64,000 bases of DNA from Shigella phage Sfk20: the sequence record MW341595; one strand, written 5' to 3'. Position 1 is the first letter of the stretch; each line of letters starts with the position of its first letter. Shown here piece by piece: positions 7,994 through 27,884 of the stretch. The notes under the pieces were generated by a model. That model made no database searches. It saw only the letters and a program-made list of their open reading frames with translations, and was not told where the DNA came from. The translations under genes were made by a program, and so were the position numbers.

Positions 7994-8534
7994 ATAAAAA
8001 ATCCAAACTAGGAGAATCGTCTACAACACTTTTCTTTTCAGCCCCCGGTGTTCTATAGGTTGATTCTTCGTAATGCGTCATTTTATCGTAGATGTCTTGA
8101 ATAAAAGTTTCATCTACTAACGCAACCATATCGTCGTCACGACTGTCATAGACATTGTGAACGAAGTAACTGTATTTCTTTGCAACTTCCTTACGTTCTT
8201 TTTTAATACGTTGGACGAATGCATTAAAACAAGCTTGAGTTATATATGCATGCGGGTTTTTATATTTCGTTTCATCAAAATTATGAAGCCCCTTAATAGA
8301 AGCTTCTATACCATCTGCAATCATTTCTTGTTTCCAGGATTGGGTGTATCCTGAAAAGTTGAAACGTTTAGATAAGCCTTCTGCAATAAGCATAATGGCT
8401 AATCCGATAGTATCATTCTGACGAACTACTTTATTTGGGTCTTTATTATTTGCTAATTCTGTTTTCCAATCAATAATAGCTTGTAAAAGCTCTTTATTGT
8501 TTACGTAATTATATTTAGGCTTAGTTTCTGACAT
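7977..8534 (-). CDS. 55: late-transcription sigma factor gp55
   Basis: 185 aa from ATG at 8532-8534 ([23 protein letters not shown]); matches recalled T4 gp55. Confidence 0.93.
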
Positions 8535-15158: not shown

Positions 15159-15337
15159 TTAGAAATAGACTTTTCACCATTAGAATAATAAACTTCGAGT
15201 TTAGCGCGGCCATTTTTAATTTGAATAACCTTTGCTGTCATCAAAGTTCCATATCCATAATAAACTGCAACCTCATCACCTACATATACCGCGCTTCCGC
15301 GGTAGTCATGGATATAATCAGTTCTTTCGAGCATCAT
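15122..15337 (-). CDS. hypothetical protein
   Basis: 71 aa ORF. Confidence 0.45.
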   Translation of the reverse strand: MMLERTDYIHDYRGSAVYVGDEVAVYYGYGTLMTAKVIQIKNGRAKLEVYYSNGEKSISKWKYGDCMVKLG

Positions 15338-15597
15338 TTAAAGTATTCCCGCAATTGATCAAATCCACCAATATGACTTCCATCAGGAGCAAATACTTGT
15401 GGCATTGTCAAACCAATTTGAGTATCACGACCTAGTTTCGTCAGAAGCTCAGCGATTTTCTCATCATCAAAAACACCTTTTTCCGGCATAATATTGATAA
15501 ATTCAAACGGTTGTTTCTTAACAGTCAAAAGACGTTTTGCATTATCGCAATACACACATTTGTGGATGTTGCTATCATAACCATATACTTTAAACAT
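15334..15597 (-). CDS. nrdC: thioredoxin/glutaredoxin NrdC
   Basis: 87 aa; CVYC active site; matches recalled T4 thioredoxin. Confidence 0.85.
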   Translation of the reverse strand: MFKVYGYDSNIHKCVYCDNAKRLLTVKKQPFEFINIMPEKGVFDDEKIAELLTKLGRDTQIGLTMPQVFAPDGSHIGGFDQLREYFK

Positions 15598-15598
15598 A

Positions 15599-15856
15599 TT
15601 ATTCCTTAATTCCTAGTACTTGTTTAAAAGTCTCGTCGTAATCAAGACTTTGGCCCGTTTGTTCTTTATGTTTGTATATAATATCACTTACTTCTGATAG
15701 CATATTTTTATATGAACGAGTTAAAGCAGATTTAAGCACGCTGTATCTATCAGGAAATTTACCGTGTTCATTATAATACGCTATTGCTAATTCACGGACT
15801 GCCTTTTCAGCAATCTCCATATATTCTTTACGCTTGGTCATTTTCTTCTCGGTCAA
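15599..15856 (-). CDS. hypothetical protein
   Basis: 85 aa ORF. Confidence 0.5.
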
Positions 15857-16145
15857 ATCGGTGTTTGCAATGACGGCATTTATAACGAAGATTACTAGTC
15901 TGCCAATGGACTAATTGAACCTGTTCAGTACCGCATTCAGGACAATTAGGAACGTTTTTAGAAGCCCTTTCGCGACGTTCAACCATAGTCATAATAGCAT
16001 CCCAGGCTGGAGGTTTAAAATCTAAATCATCACAACCATGAATCTTTCCACGCATTTCCAGATCGTCTTCTTCACCATCCATAATAATTTTAATTAGACT
16101 GGAATTACTTGAAGCTGCAATGTCTTCTAATAGACGCTTTTTCAT
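15828..16145 (-). CDS. hypothetical zinc-ribbon protein
   Basis: 105 aa; CPECG...CRHCKH four-Cys motif. Confidence 0.5.
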
Positions 16146-17071
16146 TTCAATACCTCAATGGCATTACGTAAACCATTTGCTTTTGCATTAAGAGCTTTTA
16201 ACAATTTGGTGTGTTCTGCAATTTGGGCTTCAACTTCAATCAAACGAGCATTGAGATATTCGCGTTCTTCGCTCAGGTTATCAACCTTTTCTACTTTAGG
16301 TTCTTTTACAACTGGCTTATACGTATTAGGGTTCTTCAGTTTAATTAGAATGCGTGAGCTGTATAACATTGAACCATTATCTTCGGTTTCATCATACATT
16401 TCCACTACGTCCATGATTTTTAACATCATGCGGAGTTTATAAGACAACGAACGAATAGTTTTGTTGTGCTTATTAATTTCTCTAGAGTTCATGGTGCCGA
16501 GATTACGTGAGTAATAATAAGGAACCTGGATATTAATTAACACTGATGAACCACCTGACTTGTGTGTTACTTCATCAGCAATAACCCAATCCTTAACATG
16601 AACTGTATTTGTACGGTCATCGCCTGCGGTAAATAGTTTGCGAGCATGCTTAAAAAGCATATTCACTTGGGTATTGAATTGACAAGCAAATTTATCAGCA
16701 AATTTAGTTTCAGGAATGGTAGATAACCAATCAGCTAAATGGGTCTTTTTAACATCGTTAACAATAGTAAATTCAACCAAATCGGTTATAGATGTCGCAG
16801 ATTTAATGAAGCTCGGCTTCATAAAGTTTTTAATGTTATCGCGAGCTACAGTAGAAGATAACATACGAGAACGTTTAAACCATTCAAGCAAATTGCCTAA
16901 CGAATGAGAATAAGCGTTTTGAGTATCTTTACAGATATGATTTTCCTGGCCAACATATTGAAGGAAATCACGAAGAATATTATTGATTACTGCTCTGTGT
17001 CCGATCTGATAATTACGGTGTTTAGTAATAAGACTGTCAAAATAATCAATATAATGTTTACGAGTTTTCAT
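16142..17071 (-). CDS. hypothetical protein with C-terminal coiled coil
   Basis: 309 aa; last ~45 residues heptad-like ([42 protein letters not shown]). Confidence 0.55.
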   Translation of the reverse strand: MKTRKHYIDYFDSLITKHRNYQIGHRAVINNILRDFLQYVGQENHICKDTQNAYSHSLGNLLEWFKRSRMLSSTVARDNIKNFMKPSFIKSATSITDLVEFTIVNDVKKTHLADWLSTIPETKFADKFACQFNTQVNMLFKHARKLFTAGDDRTNTVHVKDWVIADEVTHKSGGSSVLINIQVPYYYSRNLGTMNSREINKHNKTIRSLSYKLRMMLKIMDVVEMYDETEDNGSMLYSSRILIKLKNPNTYKPVVKEPKVEKVDNLSEEREYLNARLIEVEAQIAEHTKLLKALNAKANGLRNAIEVLK

Positions 17072-17123
17072 GTTCTTCTCACTTGGTTAATGATTTATAC
17101 TCCGAGCCATCCTTGGCTTTAAA

Positions 17124-18125
17124 TTACTTAATTAATTGTAAAGCTTGTTCAAGACGATCCAGGCGATTAACAGATTCTTCCCAAATCCTTTTAGCCTGCT
17201 CATATTCTTTCTGCGCTTTATTAGAAATTTCTAGAACTTCCTTATAAGCTTTTTCTAATGCAATAACTTCTGGACGAATTTCTACCGGTTCAGGTGAATC
17301 ATCAAGATTATCCATTAGTTCCTCAAGGGTAGTTTCTTCTTTAGGAGTATTCACAATTTCTTCACATTTTTGTTGGTAAATTTCTTTATCAGTCGGTGAG
17401 TACGCACATTTCACTTCACGAAGGCTAATTATAATTTTATATCCTTCCCAACCACACATATTTTTGAAAGGATATGTATGAATACTTTTTACAGTTTCCA
17501 TACAGCCCAAAGCCGCCTCTAATTGATAAGTTATAGTGCTAGCAATTGAGAAAAATTTATTAATATTCTTTTGGTTAGCGTTTGGTGTAAAAAATCCATA
17601 ATTCACAAAAATAGCTACTTTATTTTTATCAAGCTCATTTTCTTTTACGATAATCATATCAGAAGCCAAAGGATGAATTTGACGATAATCGCCATAACAT
17701 AATTTAGAAGCTGATTTTAGAATTTGTCCTTTGAAAAGTCTGAAATTACTAATCCACCGACGAGTAAAAATATTCTCAGGGTCTTCTTTATTATTAAGAT
17801 GATAAGAATTAACATCACCGAACCAATTATATCCTACTACATCTTTAGTTCGTTTAATTTCTTTCCCAAATTTACTAAGAATATCTCTGTTGACTAAGTA
17901 TGAAAGAAGACGAGAACCTTTAAAGGTTTCCTTAATGTCATCTTTATATGTACGACTAGAAATTTCACAAACTTCATAAATAAATTTGTCGGAAGAAACA
18001 ATACTTGCACTAGTATTATTGATCCATTGATTGATAATAGAAATCACACTATTCTGACTAGACATAGGTTTAACTTTATCATCAATAACGCTATTGAACG
18101 ATTTGATATATTCGTTACGAGTCAT
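17124..18125 (-). CDS. hypothetical protein with C-terminal coiled coil
   Basis: ATG at 18123-18125 behind GAGGAG RBS (MTRNEY...); track ORF extends into the promoter; C-terminal heptad segment. Confidence 0.55.
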   Translation of the reverse strand: MTRNEYIKSFNSVIDDKVKPMSSQNSVISIINQWINNTSASIVSSDKFIYEVCEISSRTYKDDIKETFKGSRLLSYLVNRDILSKFGKEIKRTKDVVGYNWFGDVNSYHLNNKEDPENIFTRRWISNFRLFKGQILKSASKLCYGDYRQIHPLASDMIIVKENELDKNKVAIFVNYGFFTPNANQKNINKFFSIASTITYQLEAALGCMETVKSIHTYPFKNMCGWEGYKIIISLREVKCAYSPTDKEIYQQKCEEIVNTPKEETTLEELMDNLDDSPEPVEIRPEVIALEKAYKEVLEISNKAQKEYEQAKRIWEESVNRLDRLEQALQLIK

Positions 18126-18151
18126 ATTAATCTCCTCAGTAGAAAGTAAGA

Positions 18152-18185
18152 ACATTATACCACATCCTTGTGGCAAAGTAAACTA
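18152..18185 (-). promoter_or_regulatory. T4-type early (sigma70) promoter
   Basis: GTTTAC - 18 nt - TATAAT then GAGGAG RBS and ATG at 18125. Confidence 0.65.
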
Positions 18186-19205
18186 GTTCAGTGCATTTAG
18201 TGCATTGTTCAGTTTAGAACGTTGCTTTGTCAGATTTTGAACCCTTGACTGAGCTTGTTCTAACACCTTTTCAGCTTCTAGCACTTCATTGGTCGCTTTA
18301 ACGAGTTCATCATCTACTGCCTTAAGAGACTTCTCAATCGCGTCAGCGTGCCATTTTTCTACAGGTTTAAAATTTGAATTTTCAGTAGGAAGAAAACTCA
18401 CTTTATTAAGTTTACATGCATCTATATTGCTTGAGCTATACATCCAAAATTTAGGATCGTTTGATGAGTAATTGGATAAATTTAAGTTATCTTGCACTTC
18501 CTGCTTTTTCTCTTGCGGGACTTCGTCCTTTCTCAAAAAATCGTATTTAAATGAAACGATCATATCAAGTTCATATGTTGTTGTGTCTAATTTAAATCGC
18601 TCAAAACGAGGTAAAATCTTAGACTGAACAGCGGCAACAACATTCATATACTTAAATGCTTCTGTCAACTGCGATTTAAGGCATTCGCAAATTGAAAGAG
18701 AATTTTTTGTATTAGGTTTAAAGCTAATTCGCGCAGTTCTGTTATTTTCTTTTAATGGTCTTACTTCCATCTGAAGAGTATAACCATCAAATTTCAGGTT
18801 CTTTAAGTTAATGTCAGAACCTTTTAATCGACTAGCAGTCGACAAAATTTGCTTTAATTGTCTACGGAACAGAGCAATAAATCTCCATTCAATACGATAA
18901 TGATTTGGATTAAAAAATCCAGATGATAAATCGACCTTACTTTGACCAACACCTTGAACAAATAGAGGATTTTTATAATCAATAGTTTTACAGAAATTGG
19001 TGAGTTGCTCACGAGCCGTCATTTGTGTAATATACCCCGCTTTACTAAAATTACTCACCCATTCACTGCTATTTAGATATTTAAAGTGATGAATAGCACG
19101 ATTAACTTTATCAGGGTCTAAATTATTTTCGCACAAAAATGTCATAACATTACGAGTATCGCTGGCAGTACGAACCATATCTTCAATTTGAGAACGAGTT
19201 TTCAT
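18183..19205 (-). CDS. hypothetical protein with C-terminal coiled coil
   Basis: 340 aa; C-terminal heptad segment (VLEAEKVLEQAQSRVQNLTKQRSKLNNALNALN). Confidence 0.55.
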   Translation of the reverse strand: MKTRSQIEDMVRTASDTRNVMTFLCENNLDPDKVNRAIHHFKYLNSSEWVSNFSKAGYITQMTAREQLTNFCKTIDYKNPLFVQGVGQSKVDLSSGFFNPNHYRIEWRFIALFRRQLKQILSTASRLKGSDINLKNLKFDGYTLQMEVRPLKENNRTARISFKPNTKNSLSICECLKSQLTEAFKYMNVVAAVQSKILPRFERFKLDTTTYELDMIVSFKYDFLRKDEVPQEKKQEVQDNLNLSNYSSNDPKFWMYSSSNIDACKLNKVSFLPTENSNFKPVEKWHADAIEKSLKAVDDELVKATNEVLEAEKVLEQAQSRVQNLTKQRSKLNNALNALN

Positions 19206-19213
19206 GGTATTCC

Positions 19214-20119
19214 TTAAGATTTAAGTAAATCGACAATTTTAATTAACTTTTCACGCTCAGATTTAGCTTTACTACTCAGTCCAGATAGTCTGAAAATTTC
19301 ATCATCATATTGTTGAATAGAAATATTCAGCTCTTCAATCTGTTTATTAAAATAATCAATTTGTTCAGAATGTTTTTCGTTACTACGAACTGGTACAGGT
19401 GTCGTAGGCAATGTAGTTGAACTGGATTCATCCGGGCGATAAATTAAAATACAACTTGAACCAATAGGGCATTTTGCACCAGATGAATATTCTAATGTTC
19501 CAGCTTCTTTTAAAACTTCAAAAGCTAAACAGAGATGATGACCCATATTGACATAATCTGTAGAGTGAGCTCTGATATAATAATCATCGCCACGAGTAAT
19601 AAATTTAAAGCATTTAAGGTCTTCTGTATTATTAGTCTTAAAAATCATTTGTTTATCTAGACCTTTAGCTAATCGAGCGCCTAATGCTAATAATCGTCTT
19701 TGATTTTCCCACAAATCCACAATCATTTGATCGAATGATAATTTTGGCATTAGTCGACCATAAAGGTCATATCCTTTATTATAATTACGAAGGATTTCAC
19801 TCGCGTTAATACGAGACAATGCTCCAATTTTATTAAGGGCTTTCATAATGCGATTAGATAAACTCATTCCAGACCCATTTGTTCGCTGCAAATGTTTTTC
19901 TAATCCAAATCCAATATCAACTTTAAACTTATCTAAAATTTCTGCATGAACATCTCTGTCAATAACATTCAAATCCAAAGTTGGGTTAAATCTATGAAAA
20001 AATTTATCCGGCTCTCCACGGCGAAATACAGTCCATTCATTCATCATTTTTTTATTAACTAAAGATTTAATTACTACATTGACATTATTAATTACTACTG
20101 ACATATTTTCCTCACTCAA
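19214..20119 (-). CDS. hypothetical protein with C-terminal coiled coil
   Basis: 301 aa; C-terminal heptad segment (IEELNISIQQYDDEIFRLSGLSSKAKSEREKLIKIVDLLKS). Confidence 0.55.
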   Translation of the reverse strand: MSEENMSVVINNVNVVIKSLVNKKMMNEWTVFRRGEPDKFFHRFNPTLDLNVIDRDVHAEILDKFKVDIGFGLEKHLQRTNGSGMSLSNRIMKALNKIGALSRINASEILRNYNKGYDLYGRLMPKLSFDQMIVDLWENQRRLLALGARLAKGLDKQMIFKTNNTEDLKCFKFITRGDDYYIRAHSTDYVNMGHHLCLAFEVLKEAGTLEYSSGAKCPIGSSCILIYRPDESSSTTLPTTPVPVRSNEKHSEQIDYFNKQIEELNISIQQYDDEIFRLSGLSSKAKSEREKLIKIVDLLKS

Positions 20120-20513
20120 TTTTACTAATTACGCGAAATAAGATTGAACAGACTATATAAGTACCGCATATAGACTGAACTAATGCCATTCCAAAGAACC
20201 AAATAATATTATCAAACCATGTCTGTTTTACGTCGAAAGGACGTAAACTTACAGTAATATTATCACCTTTTTCTATTGAAGAATACATCTCTGGGGAAAT
20301 ATATTCACTAAATCTATAACCGTCTTTGAGTTCATATACGGCAATAAACGATAAACTAGACCCTTTTCCTTGTGTTCCTGTAATGGTATTAACTACAGTA
20401 GCATCATAATCTTTATAATGCATATAATCATTAATTGCGTAATAACCATATGCAATTACTACACATAAACAACATATCAATAAATTCAATCTTTTAATTA
20501 TCAACTGTTTCAT
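20112..20513 (-). CDS. hypothetical membrane protein
   Basis: 133 aa; N- and C-terminal hydrophobic helices. Confidence 0.5.
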   Translation of the reverse strand: MKQLIIKRLNLLICCLCVVIAYGYYAINDYMHYKDYDATVVNTITGTQGKGSSLSFIAVYELKDGYRFSEYISPEMYSSIEKGDNITVSLRPFDVKQTWFDNIIWFFGMALVQSICGTYIVCSILFRVISKIE

Positions 20514-20568
20514 AATAATCTCAATTAAAAGGGCTTAGAACCATTATACCATCCTTGGTATAAAGCGG

Positions 20569-21096
20569 TTATGCGAGTACCGTCTTTAACCGTTCTTCAA
20601 ACTTCCGAAGAGTATTTTGGCGTTCAGCTCTTTGCTTTTTGTAAGTTTCAATACGCTCTGAAATGAGAGTGTATCGTTCATTTACCGATTCTTTCATAAA
20701 ATCAGGAATTTCACGAGAAGCTTTAATCTCGTCAAATTTATCAATAACAGCTTGCTCTTCAGCAATTAAGTTATCATACATCAAAATATCTTTCTTGATG
20801 AACTCAATATCTTCTTGAGTTACACGAGATAATTTAGATGCTTTATCCTTTTTGTACTGTTCATTAGTATCACGAGACCAGTGTAATGTACGATTTTTAT
20901 TCGTATTCTTGTAAATTTCTACAATACCGATCTCATCGATAATAACGATCCAATTCCAACGGGATTTGTAAATTTGTCCTCCATCAACAGTGATTTCACC
21001 TCCGATTGAGATGTCATTAAAGAACTTGCTTTGTGCCTCAGATTTAAATTTACCATCGTTGTAATTTACCAAGTTGAAAATATCTTTAGCGTTCAT
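20569..21096 (-). CDS. hypothetical protein
   Basis: 175 aa ORF with GGAGG RBS and early promoter upstream. Confidence 0.5.
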   Translation of the reverse strand: MNAKDIFNLVNYNDGKFKSEAQSKFFNDISIGGEITVDGGQIYKSRWNWIVIIDEIGIVEIYKNTNKNRTLHWSRDTNEQYKKDKASKLSRVTQEDIEFIKKDILMYDNLIAEEQAVIDKFDEIKASREIPDFMKESVNERYTLISERIETYKKQRAERQNTLRKFEERLKTVLA

Positions 21097-21560: not shown

Positions 21561-22529
21561 TTATTTCAGAAGAGTAACCTCAGCGATTTCTTCCCAACCA
21601 TTTTTGTCGGTCATAATAAAGTCAGCAAGATAAAGAGCAGTACGCAGTGAAACATTGCGTAAACGATTAACATTAACTTTCATCCATGATAATGCTTTAT
21701 AAGTTTCTTCATCAGAAAGACCACGCTTTTGCATCATGTCAGTTGAAAGAATAACATCTTCAACCCTGACCATAATTTCTTCATTAGTGTGAACACCCAA
21801 ATCTAAATAAACTGAGCGGGACACTAATGCTTGTAAATGTGGAGCAAGTTTAGTACCACGGTCTAATTCGCGGTCAATGTCAACGTTTGTGATAAAAACA
21901 ATCGTTCCTTTAAATTCAAACTCACGCTCAATGCCTTTTTCTTCTAAGTAAGAAGATGCAGTGCTCCAGCAGACTTTACGGGTCTCTCCAGTGTCCAGAG
22001 CGGCTTTTAGAAGATTAAGAATGTCCATATCAGAGAAAACATCCACATCATCAATCAAAAGGACAGAATTCTCTTCACGATTATTCCAAAGCTGCTCATA
22101 AAGACCAATACCAGAGATTTTACCATTAATGCTTTTATATTCAATGTATCCAATATCATTTGCTTTATTTAAAGCTTTATCTAAAGAATACGTTTTACCA
22201 ATACCTGCTGCGCCAGAGATAATTAATGAACGAATATTTCCGTTAATAATACCATTCGTCATCATTCCCATAACATTAAATCTTTTATTAATGCGGGTTT
22301 TCATATCTTCATATGATTCTTTAACTTCTTCAACTTTTACACCATCATATGAAATATCTGATTTGTAAACCCAAACACCGCGACGTTTACCGTCAATTTC
22401 AACAAAAACTTTACCATCTCCTTGCGCATCTACTGGAGCATTATCTGGGAACCATTCGCCTAAGAGCTCAAAAGTTCCAGAGATTTCTTTACCGAAGTAG
22501 ATACCCTTATTGATAGTTACAGTTTTCAT
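21561..22529 (-). CDS. P-loop/AAA-type ATPase
   Basis: Walker A ISGAAGIGKT and Walker B VLLIDDVD; likely start ATG 22527-22529 (MKTVTINKG) behind GGAG RBS. Confidence 0.6.
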   Translation of the reverse strand: MKTVTINKGIYFGKEISGTFELLGEWFPDNAPVDAQGDGKVFVEIDGKRRGVWVYKSDISYDGVKVEEVKESYEDMKTRINKRFNVMGMMTNGIINGNIRSLIISGAAGIGKTYSLDKALNKANDIGYIEYKSINGKISGIGLYEQLWNNREENSVLLIDDVDVFSDMDILNLLKAALDTGETRKVCWSTASSYLEEKGIEREFEFKGTIVFITNVDIDRELDRGTKLAPHLQALVSRSVYLDLGVHTNEEIMVRVEDVILSTDMMQKRGLSDEETYKALSWMKVNVNRLRNVSLRTALYLADFIMTDKNGWEEIAEVTLLK

Positions 22530-22573
22530 TTTATTCTCCAAATCCGTATCAGTTGATAGTTGTATAGTACCAT

Positions 22574-22595
22574 AGGGAGCCCGAAGGCTCCCTAT
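22574..22595 (-). terminator. C(UUCG)G tetraloop hairpin between NTase and ATPase genes
   Basis: UAGGGAGCC-UUCG-GGCUCCCUA directly after NTase stop. Confidence 0.45.
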
Positions 22596-23608
22596 CATTT
22601 ATAATAACTTCGGTGGTTTTCAAGATAAACCCTCTCAAGGAAGTCATCCCAGAAACCCATGTCTACTTTTTGCTGCATACCGTTCTTAGAAGCTTCAATG
22701 GATGCTGCTTCTACTTGATCGACCACATCTTCCAAAAACTCTTGAACAGTTTTAAATGGATGTTTACCCAACTTCACGTCGAGAATAAATGGAGCGTCTT
22801 GAAGTGGATAGACTAAGTCACCAGTTTTGTAAATTTCCAATAGTTGGAGCCCACCACGACAAGCATGACTCAGAGCTTTCCAGTCAATGCCCTCATTCGC
22901 TTCAGCCTTACGAGCACGTTCGCCGTATTCAGCATCAAGTTTATTCAAAGATTGCTTAAGCTCGATAAGAGAAAGTGTTGTTTGATATTTACGACCCAAC
23001 ACAGTGTAGAACGTTTGTGGACCTGTTTTCTCATGATTATGGAATACCCATTCACAGAATTCGTTCTCTGGAAGACGATGCTTAATATCTTCAACTTTAG
23101 TTCGACGCTGCTTAATGGAACCGTCTTCTTGGTAATCAACCCATTGCTCAGGGATTTGATTAACTACTTTCAATACATCACGTAATGCGGCCAAACGAGA
23201 ACCCTTAACACCGTATTTAGAAGCTTGCTTGCGAACATATCCTAAGTAGGATTTCATGTTAGTCGTATAAAAACGAGAACGATTGTCTTGAATAAACTTC
23301 CATACATCAGGCAAATCAGATTTAATTACTAGTTCCGGTGGAGTGTGGAGCATATCCAATGCTACAGTTTCACCATCTGCTGCTAATTTAAAGAAATACT
23401 TAAGACTGTATAGTTCATGGTCAATATCATCTTTAGTGTTTTTAGATGATGTGTTGTTAGTGTTTTTACTCATATGCTCTTTAACATTTCCGATAAGAAT
23501 ATCACGAGCAGGAGGAACAAAGATTTCTTTAAAATCTACATCAGATTCTGGAGTAGAAGTTCCATAAAGATGACTACCAAAATAGCTTTTCATTACTGTT
23601 TTCATCAT
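22595..23608 (-). CDS. nucleotidyltransferase-fold protein (pol-beta superfamily)
   Basis: N-terminal FGSHLYGTSTPESDVDF = hG[GS]...DxD minimal NTase signature; 337 aa; stop overlaps the ATPase ORF region. Confidence 0.55.
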   Translation of the reverse strand: MMKTVMKSYFGSHLYGTSTPESDVDFKEIFVPPARDILIGNVKEHMSKNTNNTSSKNTKDDIDHELYSLKYFFKLAADGETVALDMLHTPPELVIKSDLPDVWKFIQDNRSRFYTTNMKSYLGYVRKQASKYGVKGSRLAALRDVLKVVNQIPEQWVDYQEDGSIKQRRTKVEDIKHRLPENEFCEWVFHNHEKTGPQTFYTVLGRKYQTTLSLIELKQSLNKLDAEYGERARKAEANEGIDWKALSHACRGGLQLLEIYKTGDLVYPLQDAPFILDVKLGKHPFKTVQEFLEDVVDQVEAASIEASKNGMQQKVDMGFWDDFLERVYLENHRSYYK

Positions 23609-27112: not shown

Positions 27113-27694
27113 CTAACCGAGCTTTTTAGTTAATTCATTCCAATGTTTTCTACACAAAGAAACATAAATTTCATCACCAATACAGATTTGATTACCTTCT
27201 TTAACTGGTGTTCCATCTTCCATTAATCGAGCTGTCATAATCGCTTTTTTACCACAATGACAAACTGCCTTTAGTTCAATAAGTTTATCTGCAATCGCCA
27301 AAAGTTCTTTAGAACCTTCAAATAATTTTCCAGCGAAATCAGTCCTTAGCCCATAAGCCATAACAGGAACATTATATGTATCAACAATTCGGCTTAATTG
27401 ATGCACCTGTTCAGTTTTTAAAAACTGGGCTTCATCTACAAATACGCAATGAATATCTTTTTGTGCTTCAGCCCATTTATAGAACTCAAAAATATCCATA
27501 TCATCCGTAATAATATTCGCTTCCTGTTTAATTCCAATGCGAGAAACGACTTCACAGACAGAATCGCGAGTATCAATAGCAGGCTTAAGAACTAATACAC
27601 CCATTCCACGTTCTTTATAATTATGTGCAGCAGTCAAAAGAGAAGCAGATTTTCCAGCATTCATTGCTGCATAAGTAAAAATTAAACTCGCCAT
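27113..27694 (-). CDS. tk: thymidine kinase
   Basis: 193 aa; P-loop MNAGKS and C-terminal zinc ribbon CHCG...C motifs. Confidence 0.92.
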   Translation of the reverse strand: MASLIFTYAAMNAGKSASLLTAAHNYKERGMGVLVLKPAIDTRDSVCEVVSRIGIKQEANIITDDMDIFEFYKWAEAQKDIHCVFVDEAQFLKTEQVHQLSRIVDTYNVPVMAYGLRTDFAGKLFEGSKELLAIADKLIELKAVCHCGKKAIMTARLMEDGTPVKEGNQICIGDEIYVSLCRKHWNELTKKLG

Positions 27695-27695
27695 C

Positions 27696-27884
27696 TTAGT
27701 CCTTAGTTAAATTTTCTAAATATGTTTCTAAATCATTTTCAGCTTTATCGATAGATTTTACTAATTCGTAATATGTTTCGGCATCTCCATAATCTGAAGC
27801 CGCTTCAAAAGATAAATCTCGTTCTAAACTAATAATTTCACCAACTAAAAATAATATTTCGTTCTTTTGTTCGCGGGTAATCAT
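27696..27884 (-). CDS. hypothetical protein
   Basis: 62 aa acidic ORF. Confidence 0.45.
   Translation of the reverse strand: MITREQKNEILFLVGEIISLERDLSFEAASDYGDAETYYELVKSIDKAENDLETYLENLTKD

Follow-up and report, generated by a model that had tools for sequence, protein, structure and literature searches.

The genome of Shigella phage Sfk20 carries, between nrdC and tk, four consecutive open reading frames (ORFs) whose products all end in a heptad-patterned segment, and the question raised by this locus is whether one C-terminal module has been joined to four unrelated proteins or whether the proteins are related along their whole length. The ORFs, here called ORF1 to ORF4, lie within a 64,000-nucleotide stretch of sequence record MW341595 (the window) that belongs to a Tequatrovirus (T4-like) genome; over positions 16000-20600 the identity to Shigella phage KNP5 is 98.3%, and matches to this part are present in 740 phage records. 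Phage T4 is the best-studied phage, and roughly half of its genes are without known function. Comparison with the annotated T4 genome gave the four ORFs the gene names nrdC.3, nrdC.4, nrdC.5 and nrdC.6 (Table 1). An earlier note on this DNA had described them as proteins with a common C-terminal oligomerisation or attachment module and unrelated, swapped N-terminal effector domains. Our analysis leads to a different answer: ORF1-ORF4 are tandem paralogues, not a common module on different heads. We give a probability of about 60% to the fuller reading that they are anciently duplicated members of one family, most likely of inhibitors of host immune proteins.

The relation is most direct for the first two proteins. 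In BLASTP comparisons ORF1 and ORF2 aligned over 283 residues with 24% identity (E-value 2e-9), and both matched phrog_1435 from end to end, with E-values of 1.6e-116 and 3.5e-163, respectively. The remaining five of the six ORF pairs gave no significant BLASTP match. Profile-profile comparisons were made with hhalign and accompanied by reversed-sequence controls; they gave an E-value of 5e-11 for ORF1 against the ORF2 family. For ORF3, which corresponds to DUF7235, the profile was enriched with divergent orthologues of the type found in phage NC-G. This profile matched the ORF1/2 family with an E-value of 3e-9 and a probability of 96% over 250 columns (reversed control 0.11), and the alignment ran from a motif described below, motif A, through the last residue (52-340 against 67-333). 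The similarity was not confined to the tails: the N-terminal domains taken by themselves gave an E-value of 9.5e-5.

ORF4 was connected through an intermediate. A 335-residue protein of Enterobacter phage IME523 (Kanagawavirus) matched the hidden Markov models (HMMs) of both ORF1/2 (2.5e-8) and ORF4 (1.8e-8). A profile of the family of this protein aligned with ORF1/2 over 225 columns with an E-value of 1.6e-8, and with ORF4 both along the tail, end to end (4.6e-6), and in a second motif, motif B (1.5e-4). The scores in these comparisons were 12-15 bits, as against 5.9 bits for the best of 1000 shuffles. In an alignment of nine sequences four elements stood in register: motif A, F+.SR.LS....R..L.NF; motif B, F.....IL..G.RL..G..R; a 'PVE' junction between linker and tail; and a terminal 'R.KL..A...LK'. 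Similarity of the N-terminal domains, by profile or by structure, was found for every pair of families, either directly or through an intermediate. The statement that the first 250 residues of the four proteins have no obvious mutual similarity is contradicted by the BLASTP match of ORF1 and ORF2, and by the motifs and the fold that all four have in common.

AlphaFold2 models of the ORF2 and ORF4 monomers (m85b7fbd33d8d and m3e1e19514a9b) had a mean predicted local distance difference test (pLDDT) score of 82.5 and 77.5, respectively. In both models the secondary-structure elements followed one order, beginning with N-terminal helices and a helix pair, continuing with a beta-hairpin, a long helix and a further beta-hairpin, and closing with the linker and a C-terminal helix. 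A Foldseek search with the ORF2 model retrieved the ORF4-family entry C4MZI0 of BFVD with an E-value of 5.3e-6 and template modelling scores (TM-scores) of 0.44 and 0.51. Seven targets were common to the searches with the two models, all T4-like phage proteins of 280-374 residues, from phages of Pectobacterium, Enterobacter, Acinetobacter, Erwinia, Serratia and Escherichia. The earlier note had proposed structure prediction and fold search for each N-terminal domain; carried out for ORF2 and ORF4, these pointed to one common predicted fold along the whole length, and not to different domains.

That unrelated effector domains have been exchanged on a common oligomerisation or attachment module is, in view of these results, very improbable, and we regard it as already largely refuted. 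It would account for the five ORF pairs lacking a significant BLASTP match and for the three separate families that both Pfam and PHROGs maintain. It would also agree with a mosaic pair of homologues, P0226 (from a metagenome) and P0212, in which the last 60 residues are ~90% identical and the N-terminal domains only ~25%. However, even the N-terminal domains of this pair align along their whole length, and the homology of ORF1/2 and ORF3 persists in the N-terminal domains alone. Motif B ties ORF4 to the bridging IME523 family, the Foldseek matches of ORF2 and ORF4 are reciprocal, and the hhalign results of 5e-11 and 3e-9 speak equally against unrelated heads.

The C-terminal tails themselves are a true feature of all four proteins, and each stands behind a flexible, proline-containing linker, as had been claimed. 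A crude heptad score was highest within the final ~45 residues of each protein; among whole-protein shuffles (n = 200), the proportion that reached this maximum was 0.015, 0.16, 0 and 0 for ORF1, ORF2, ORF3 and ORF4. A single unbroken heptad register extended over 43, 49, 58 and 54 residues, respectively. The a and d positions were 80-88% hydrophobic, as compared with 18-32% at the other heptad positions, and the heptad phase at the tail end was identical in the four proteins, with L at d and K or N at e. If a coiled coil is taken to require a proline-free predicted helix with 4-5 or more uninterrupted heptads whose a/d positions are hydrophobic, each tail qualified with 6-8 heptads; the assignment is based on the crude score, the fit of the register and the helices of the AlphaFold2 monomers of ORF2 and ORF4. 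The linkers contain 3-4 prolines, and their fraction of proline plus glutamate is 0.15-0.37, compared with 0.07-0.10 in the remaining protein. In the AlphaFold2 models the linker appeared as a segment of low confidence (residues 275-283 in ORF2 and 228-242 in ORF4). Within orthologous groups the tail was the best conserved part (0.71-0.74, versus 0.53-0.61 for the centre) and the linker the least conserved. Oligomerisation or attachment via the heptad tail is plausible.

Any amphipathic helix looks like any other, and the tails could be convergent coiled coils of separate origin. The pairwise alignments agree with this: of 40 residues only 3-8 are identical between any two of the tails (8-20% identity), which is no better than heptad-preserving shuffles (p 0.05-0.64), and an HMM of the ORF4 tail, run against the 347 ORFs of the window, failed to match the other three tails. 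The case for a common origin of the tails therefore rests on profile comparisons and intermediate sequences. Tail-only profiles aligned end to end and in register, with E-values of 1.3e-4 for the ORF1/2 family against ORF3 and, as given above, 4.6e-6 for the bridging family against ORF4; the reversed controls were at 0.06-0.44. The HMM of the ORF1/2 tail ranked ORF3 as the top non-self match among the same 347 ORFs and passed over the coiled-coil end of the neighbouring nrdC.8 product. The alignment of the C-termini that the earlier note had suggested thus succeeded at the level of profiles, but not at that of sequence pairs. As the tails also end in one heptad phase, and are preceded by homologous N-terminal domains and the common 'PVE' junction, we consider convergence unlikely.

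A search with the ORF1/2 profile among 1.84 billion protein representatives returned 11 matches at an E-value of at most 1e-3, one of them spurious (a coiled-coil protein of 2410 residues); ORF3 and ORF4 were not reached directly by this search. As far as sequence searches can tell, the family does not extend beyond T4-like phages (Straboviridae and relatives). No fifth member emerged when the 347 ORFs of the window were all scanned with the HMMs. The number of copies was one in phage Marfa (Marfavirus), one in IME523, three in NC-G and four in Tequatrovirus, always upstream of nrdC. The 256-257-residue neighbours of the single copies in Marfa and IME523 were considered as candidates and found not to belong to the family. 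Acinetobacter phage Acj61 has two members with adjacent accessions (E5E4A1 and E5E4A2). This pair, together with the varying copy number at a syntenic site, suggests independent or nested duplications. The array represents a tandem expansion, specific to its lineage, of a single family confined to T4-like phages.

The genes are variably present, in 529-653 of the ~740 records, and they evolve as mosaics with conserved ends and a fast-changing centre. ORF1 represents a second, divergent allelic class of nrdC.3: its ends are 75-95% identical to the T4 gene and its centre is 25-55% identical, in a neighbourhood where flanking genes are at ~90-95%. Across 653 phage records the identity to ORF1 was bimodal, with 357 records at 90% or above and 257 at 60-80%, from which it follows that at least two allelic classes of nrdC.3 circulate in Tequatrovirus. 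Among cultured phages the metagenomic protein P0226 has only a distant counterpart, its best match being 37.5% identical. The mosaic structure of ORF1, the bimodal identities and the pattern of P0226 and P0212 are the kind of variation expected of arms-race proteins, and these sequence patterns suggest that the central domain may be an arms-race surface.

The array also undergoes deletions, of which P0056 (299 residues, on a 167-kb contig) is an example. In this natural fusion nrdC.5 residues 146-272 are followed in frame by nrdC.3 residues ~129-309; nrdC.4 is deleted, and the two genes meet out of register where they have a short NKV/QVN microhomology. A smaller lesion was found in the T4 reference. 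ORF4 is 96.5% identical to T4 nrdC.6 across the first 259 residues, after which the T4 gene carries a 1-bp deletion (GAGCTG-ATATT compared with GAGCTGAATATT; window 19217-19340 against T4 locus 8067-8200). The frameshift replaces the heptad tail by 16 unrelated residues, giving a product of 275 residues in total. Since the T4 DNA downstream still encodes the tail out of frame, this is either a recent lesion or a sequencing error.

A function has been described for one member of the family. When T4 nrdC.5 is supplied from a plasmid, a T4 deletion mutant again forms plaques on E. coli that carries dsr1, a SIR2 defence gene from E. coli ECOR17 (PMC9391042). The result holds for the T4 allele, from which ORF3 of the window differs at 7% of positions. 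In the paper (Srikant et al., eLife 2022, PMC9391042) nrdC.5 appears as one uncharacterised gene, and nothing is said of a mechanism, a structure, paralogues or a C-terminal tail. ORF3 is orthologous to this gene, and ORF1, ORF2 and ORF4, which belong to the same array, are paralogous to it. In the literature we found no published function for nrdC.3, nrdC.4 or nrdC.6, and no earlier description of the superfamily link and architecture of nrdC.3-nrdC.6, although the genes themselves are known T4 ORFs. The surroundings agree with a role in defence evasion: gp49.2, encoded nearby, inhibits the OLD defence system (PMC13096335), and the Lon protease inhibitor gene pin is among the neighbouring genes in the T4 annotation. 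The genes nrdC.3-nrdC.6 are non-essential early genes within an anti-defence island. Like the T-even anti-defence islands dmd-tifA-adfA and pin-gp49.2, they are clustered; those islands are made up of small non-essential early genes that each act on one host system and are prone to amplification and deletion. The difference is that those islands hold unrelated small inhibitors, whereas this one has arisen by four-fold paralogous expansion of a scaffold of ~300 residues.

The four proteins have a common predicted build. A helical sub-domain at the N-terminus is followed by an alpha/beta sub-domain, in which a helix pair and a long helix are each succeeded by a beta-hairpin, then by the flexible proline-containing linker and a C-terminal amphipathic helix of 6-8 heptads. 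In our reading NrdC.5 (ORF3) neutralises the SIR2 NADase Dsr1, presumably by binding it directly, and ORF1, ORF2 and ORF4 may be tuned to other defence targets or variants. The variable central domain probably contacts the target as a specificity surface. The conserved tail probably drives paralogue-specific self-association, which would provide avidity towards oligomeric defence proteins. A working analogy for NrdC.5 may be DSAD1, an inhibitor of DSR2 from the phage SPbeta that binds and neutralises a defence-associated sirtuin. DSAD1 comes from another phage group and its target DSR2 senses the tail tube protein, so that the two are likened by function only.

If the tails mediate association, they could also bring the four paralogues together in one multi-headed complex. 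The genes are adjacent and probably co-expressed early, and the tails are of similar length and have the same heptad phase. Against this, the tails are strongly conserved within orthologous groups but 8-20% identical between paralogues, as expected for insulation between paralogues, and this argues for paralogue-specific homomers instead of hetero-complexes or one common partner. Furthermore, genera differ in having 1 to 4 copies, nrdC.5 is by itself sufficient to complement the defect (PMC9391042), and the nrdC.6 tail is lost in T4. We therefore find such hetero-oligomers very unlikely, and paralogue-specific homomers remain our preferred form of association.

A more specific mechanism was suggested by weak matches in BFVD to phage tail completion proteins. 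At the fold level the predicted alpha/beta sub-domain appears to resemble tail terminator and tail completion proteins (lambda gpU-like), a likeness that does not imply family membership. Bacterial receptors sense conserved structural folds, for instance tail terminators by Avs15 and the major capsid protein by Dsr1 (PMC12803255), and this prompts the hypothesis that the sub-domain copies a virion fold and that the proteins, as soluble mimics, occupy the sensors of Avs- or Dsr-type receptors. NrdC.3-NrdC.6 would then form an oligomeric decoy repertoire, in which a variable alpha/beta core, derived from a tail-terminator-like virion fold or mimicking it, was diversified by tandem duplication and mosaic recombination so that different copies plug different immune sensors. 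Its targets would include Dsr1 and Avs-type STANDs, and the conserved coiled-coil tail would correspond to the target's oligomeric state. The known target does not fit: what Dsr1 reportedly senses is the capsid protein and not the tail terminator (PMC12803255). In addition, no sequence signal for such a fold appeared in the Pfam scan or in profile searches of the PDB, where the ORF1/2 profile retrieved designed helical repeats and ribosomal protein L36 only, and the ORF4 profile had no match. Both the mimicry and the decoy repertoire built on it are doubtful, with a small chance of being correct.

The family relation is hidden in the databases. Pfam splits the proteins into three families without function. 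PF23882 (DUF7235) matched ORF3 over its full length with 396 bits, compared with a cut-off of 30 (E-value 1.5e-118), and the orthology of ORF3 is further indicated by its 93% identity to T4 NP_049703 over 340 residues and its syntenic position. PF26897 (Phage_T4_Y04OP) is assigned to homologues of ORF2 and to P0056, which carries the C-terminal half of ORF1; this is a precomputed annotation of the homologues, the model being absent from the Pfam set with which the window ORFs were scanned. PF26899 (Phage_T4_Y05B) is assigned to 105 of 105 homologues of ORF4, which itself matched phrog_2257 in residues 6-301 (E-value 1.9e-150). PHROGs 1435, 2351, 2257 and 26858 are likewise left unconnected, as are PF26897 and PF26899, and are here merged into one superfamily. 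A weak match of phrog_26858 to both ORF2 and ORF3 is a hint in the same direction. Sub-threshold Pfam matches of ORF1-ORF4 (PHL domain, Phage_int_SAM_1, DUF3905, DUF4164 and V-SNARE_C) were set aside because they covered short segments, did not reach the curated cut-off or reflected coiled-coil noise.

Many GenBank and UniRef records name homologues of nrdC.3-nrdC.6 'thioredoxin' or 'thioredoxin, phage-associated'. This label, and the proximity of the genes to nrdC, might point to a role apart from defence, such as host take-over or nucleotide metabolism. However, the Pfam scan of ORF1-ORF4 at an E-value of up to 1 showed no thioredoxin or glutaredoxin match, and the predicted topology of ORF2 and ORF4, helical plus beta-beta-alpha-beta-beta, is not thioredoxin-like. 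The label is unsupported and appears to have spread from the locus name. The anti-Dsr1 phenotype of nrdC.5 is specific (PMC9391042), and the genes are dispensable and variably present. A role outside defence is highly improbable, and we retain immune inhibition as the most likely function of the family.

Several observations weigh against this reading of the array as one family of immune inhibitors. Experimental support exists for one of the four members only, NrdC.5, and its phenotype leaves room for direct binding or an indirect effect. Direct hhalign comparisons of ORF4 with ORF1/2 or ORF3 were weak (E-values 0.02-0.36; the value for ORF3 was 0.36 and not significant), and the link of ORF4 to ORF1-ORF3 is made by the intermediate family and by predicted structures with TM-scores of ~0.45-0.5. 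The low pairwise similarity of the tails, at the level of shuffles, was mentioned above, and in the AlphaFold2 monomer model the tail of ORF4 folds back as a helical hairpin of 30+18 residues. Finally, the T4 reference nrdC.6 is without its tail, which makes the tail dispensable at least for laboratory growth.

Table 1. Position of the four paralogues, their conserved elements and neighbouring features in the window.
Feature	Position	Strand	Length or residues	Remarks
ORF1	16142-17071	-	309 aa	T4 nrdC.3 (Y04O) orthologue; 61% identity to T4; phrog_1435
ORF2	17124-18125	-	333 aa from ATG	T4 nrdC.4 (Y04P) orthologue; 88% identity to T4
ORF3	18183-19205	-	340 aa	T4 nrdC.5 (Y05A) orthologue; 93% identity to T4; DUF7235
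ORF4	19214-20104	-	296 aa from ATG	T4 nrdC.6 (Y05B) orthologue
Motif A, ORF1	16817-16882	-
Motif A, ORF2	17862-17927	-		TFKGSRLLSYLVNRDILSKFGK
Motif A, ORF3	18987-19052	-
Motif A, ORF4	19775-19840	-
Motif B, ORF1	16613-16693	-
Motif B, ORF2	17682-17759	-		RWISNFRLFKGQILKSASKLCYGDYR; helix pair
Motif B, ORF3	18807-18884	-
Motif B, ORF4	19652-19729	-
Heptad tail, ORF1	16145-16273	-	residues 267-309
Heptad tail, ORF2	17127-17273	-	residues 285-333	predicted single 48-residue helix (AlphaFold2)
Heptad tail, ORF3	18186-18359	-	residues 283-340
Heptad tail, ORF4	19217-19378	-	residues 243-296	helix-turn-helix in AlphaFold2 monomer model
Promoter-like site	18154-18182	-		(G)TTTACT-N17-TATAAT, -10 hexamer preceded by TG; located in the 57 bp that separate ORF2 from ORF3
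nrdC	15334-15597		87 aa
nrdC.2 orthologue	15828-16145	-	105 aa	zinc-ribbon-like C-terminus
nrdC.8 orthologue	20569-21096	-	175 aa	coiled-coil-like C-terminal end
nrdC.10 orthologue	21561-22598	-		overlaps nrdC.11 orthologue
nrdC.11 orthologue	22595-23608	-		overlaps nrdC.10 orthologue
tk	27116-27706

The four ORFs reported in the earlier note are real, all on the minus strand, and their placement between nrdC and tk holds. Two of them have alternative starts. The open frame of ORF2 continues past the ATG to a TTG at 18176, and a frame of ORF4 extended to a TTG reaches 20119 and has 301 codons. For ORF4 the ATG at 20104 was preferred because the T4 annotation and the PHROG profile support it. 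An early promoter had been placed at 18152-18185, and the minus strand does carry a GTTTAC-N17-TATAAT site there. T4 has the site unchanged, phage NC-G retains the hexamers, and the sequence matches the T4 early-promoter type.

Among the neighbouring genes, the start codon of the nrdC.2 orthologue overlaps the stop codon of ORF1 (ATGA). The C-terminus of its product resembles a zinc ribbon (CPEC…CRHC), with sub-threshold matches to Zn_ribbon models of Pfam. On the other side, the product of the nrdC.8 orthologue has a long, charged, helical and coiled-coil-like C-terminal end (…ERIETYKKQRAERQNTLRKFEERLKTVLA); it belongs to no Pfam family and gave no match to the tail or family HMMs of ORF1-ORF4. 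Further along, the overlapping nrdC.10 and nrdC.11 orthologues may form a two-gene module. The product of one is a P-loop ATPase, whose AAA and STAND-like matches in Pfam were weak and below threshold; that of the other is a nucleotidyltransferase of the RlaP type (RNA repair pathway).

The interpretation of the locus shifts to tandem mosaic paralogues of one phage-specific scaffold, of which one is a known anti-defence protein. Three Pfam families merge into one, and through their paralogy with the anti-Dsr1 protein NrdC.5 the genes nrdC.3, nrdC.4 and nrdC.6 become testable candidates for immune evasion. Three 'hypothetical proteins', often mislabelled as thioredoxin, are now specific anti-defence candidates. 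For work on the inhibition of Dsr1 the analysis offers a domain map of variable central domain, flexible linker and conserved heptad tail. An arms-race surface in the central domain, as suggested by the allelic mosaicism, would bear on the prediction of host range for therapeutic T4-like phages.

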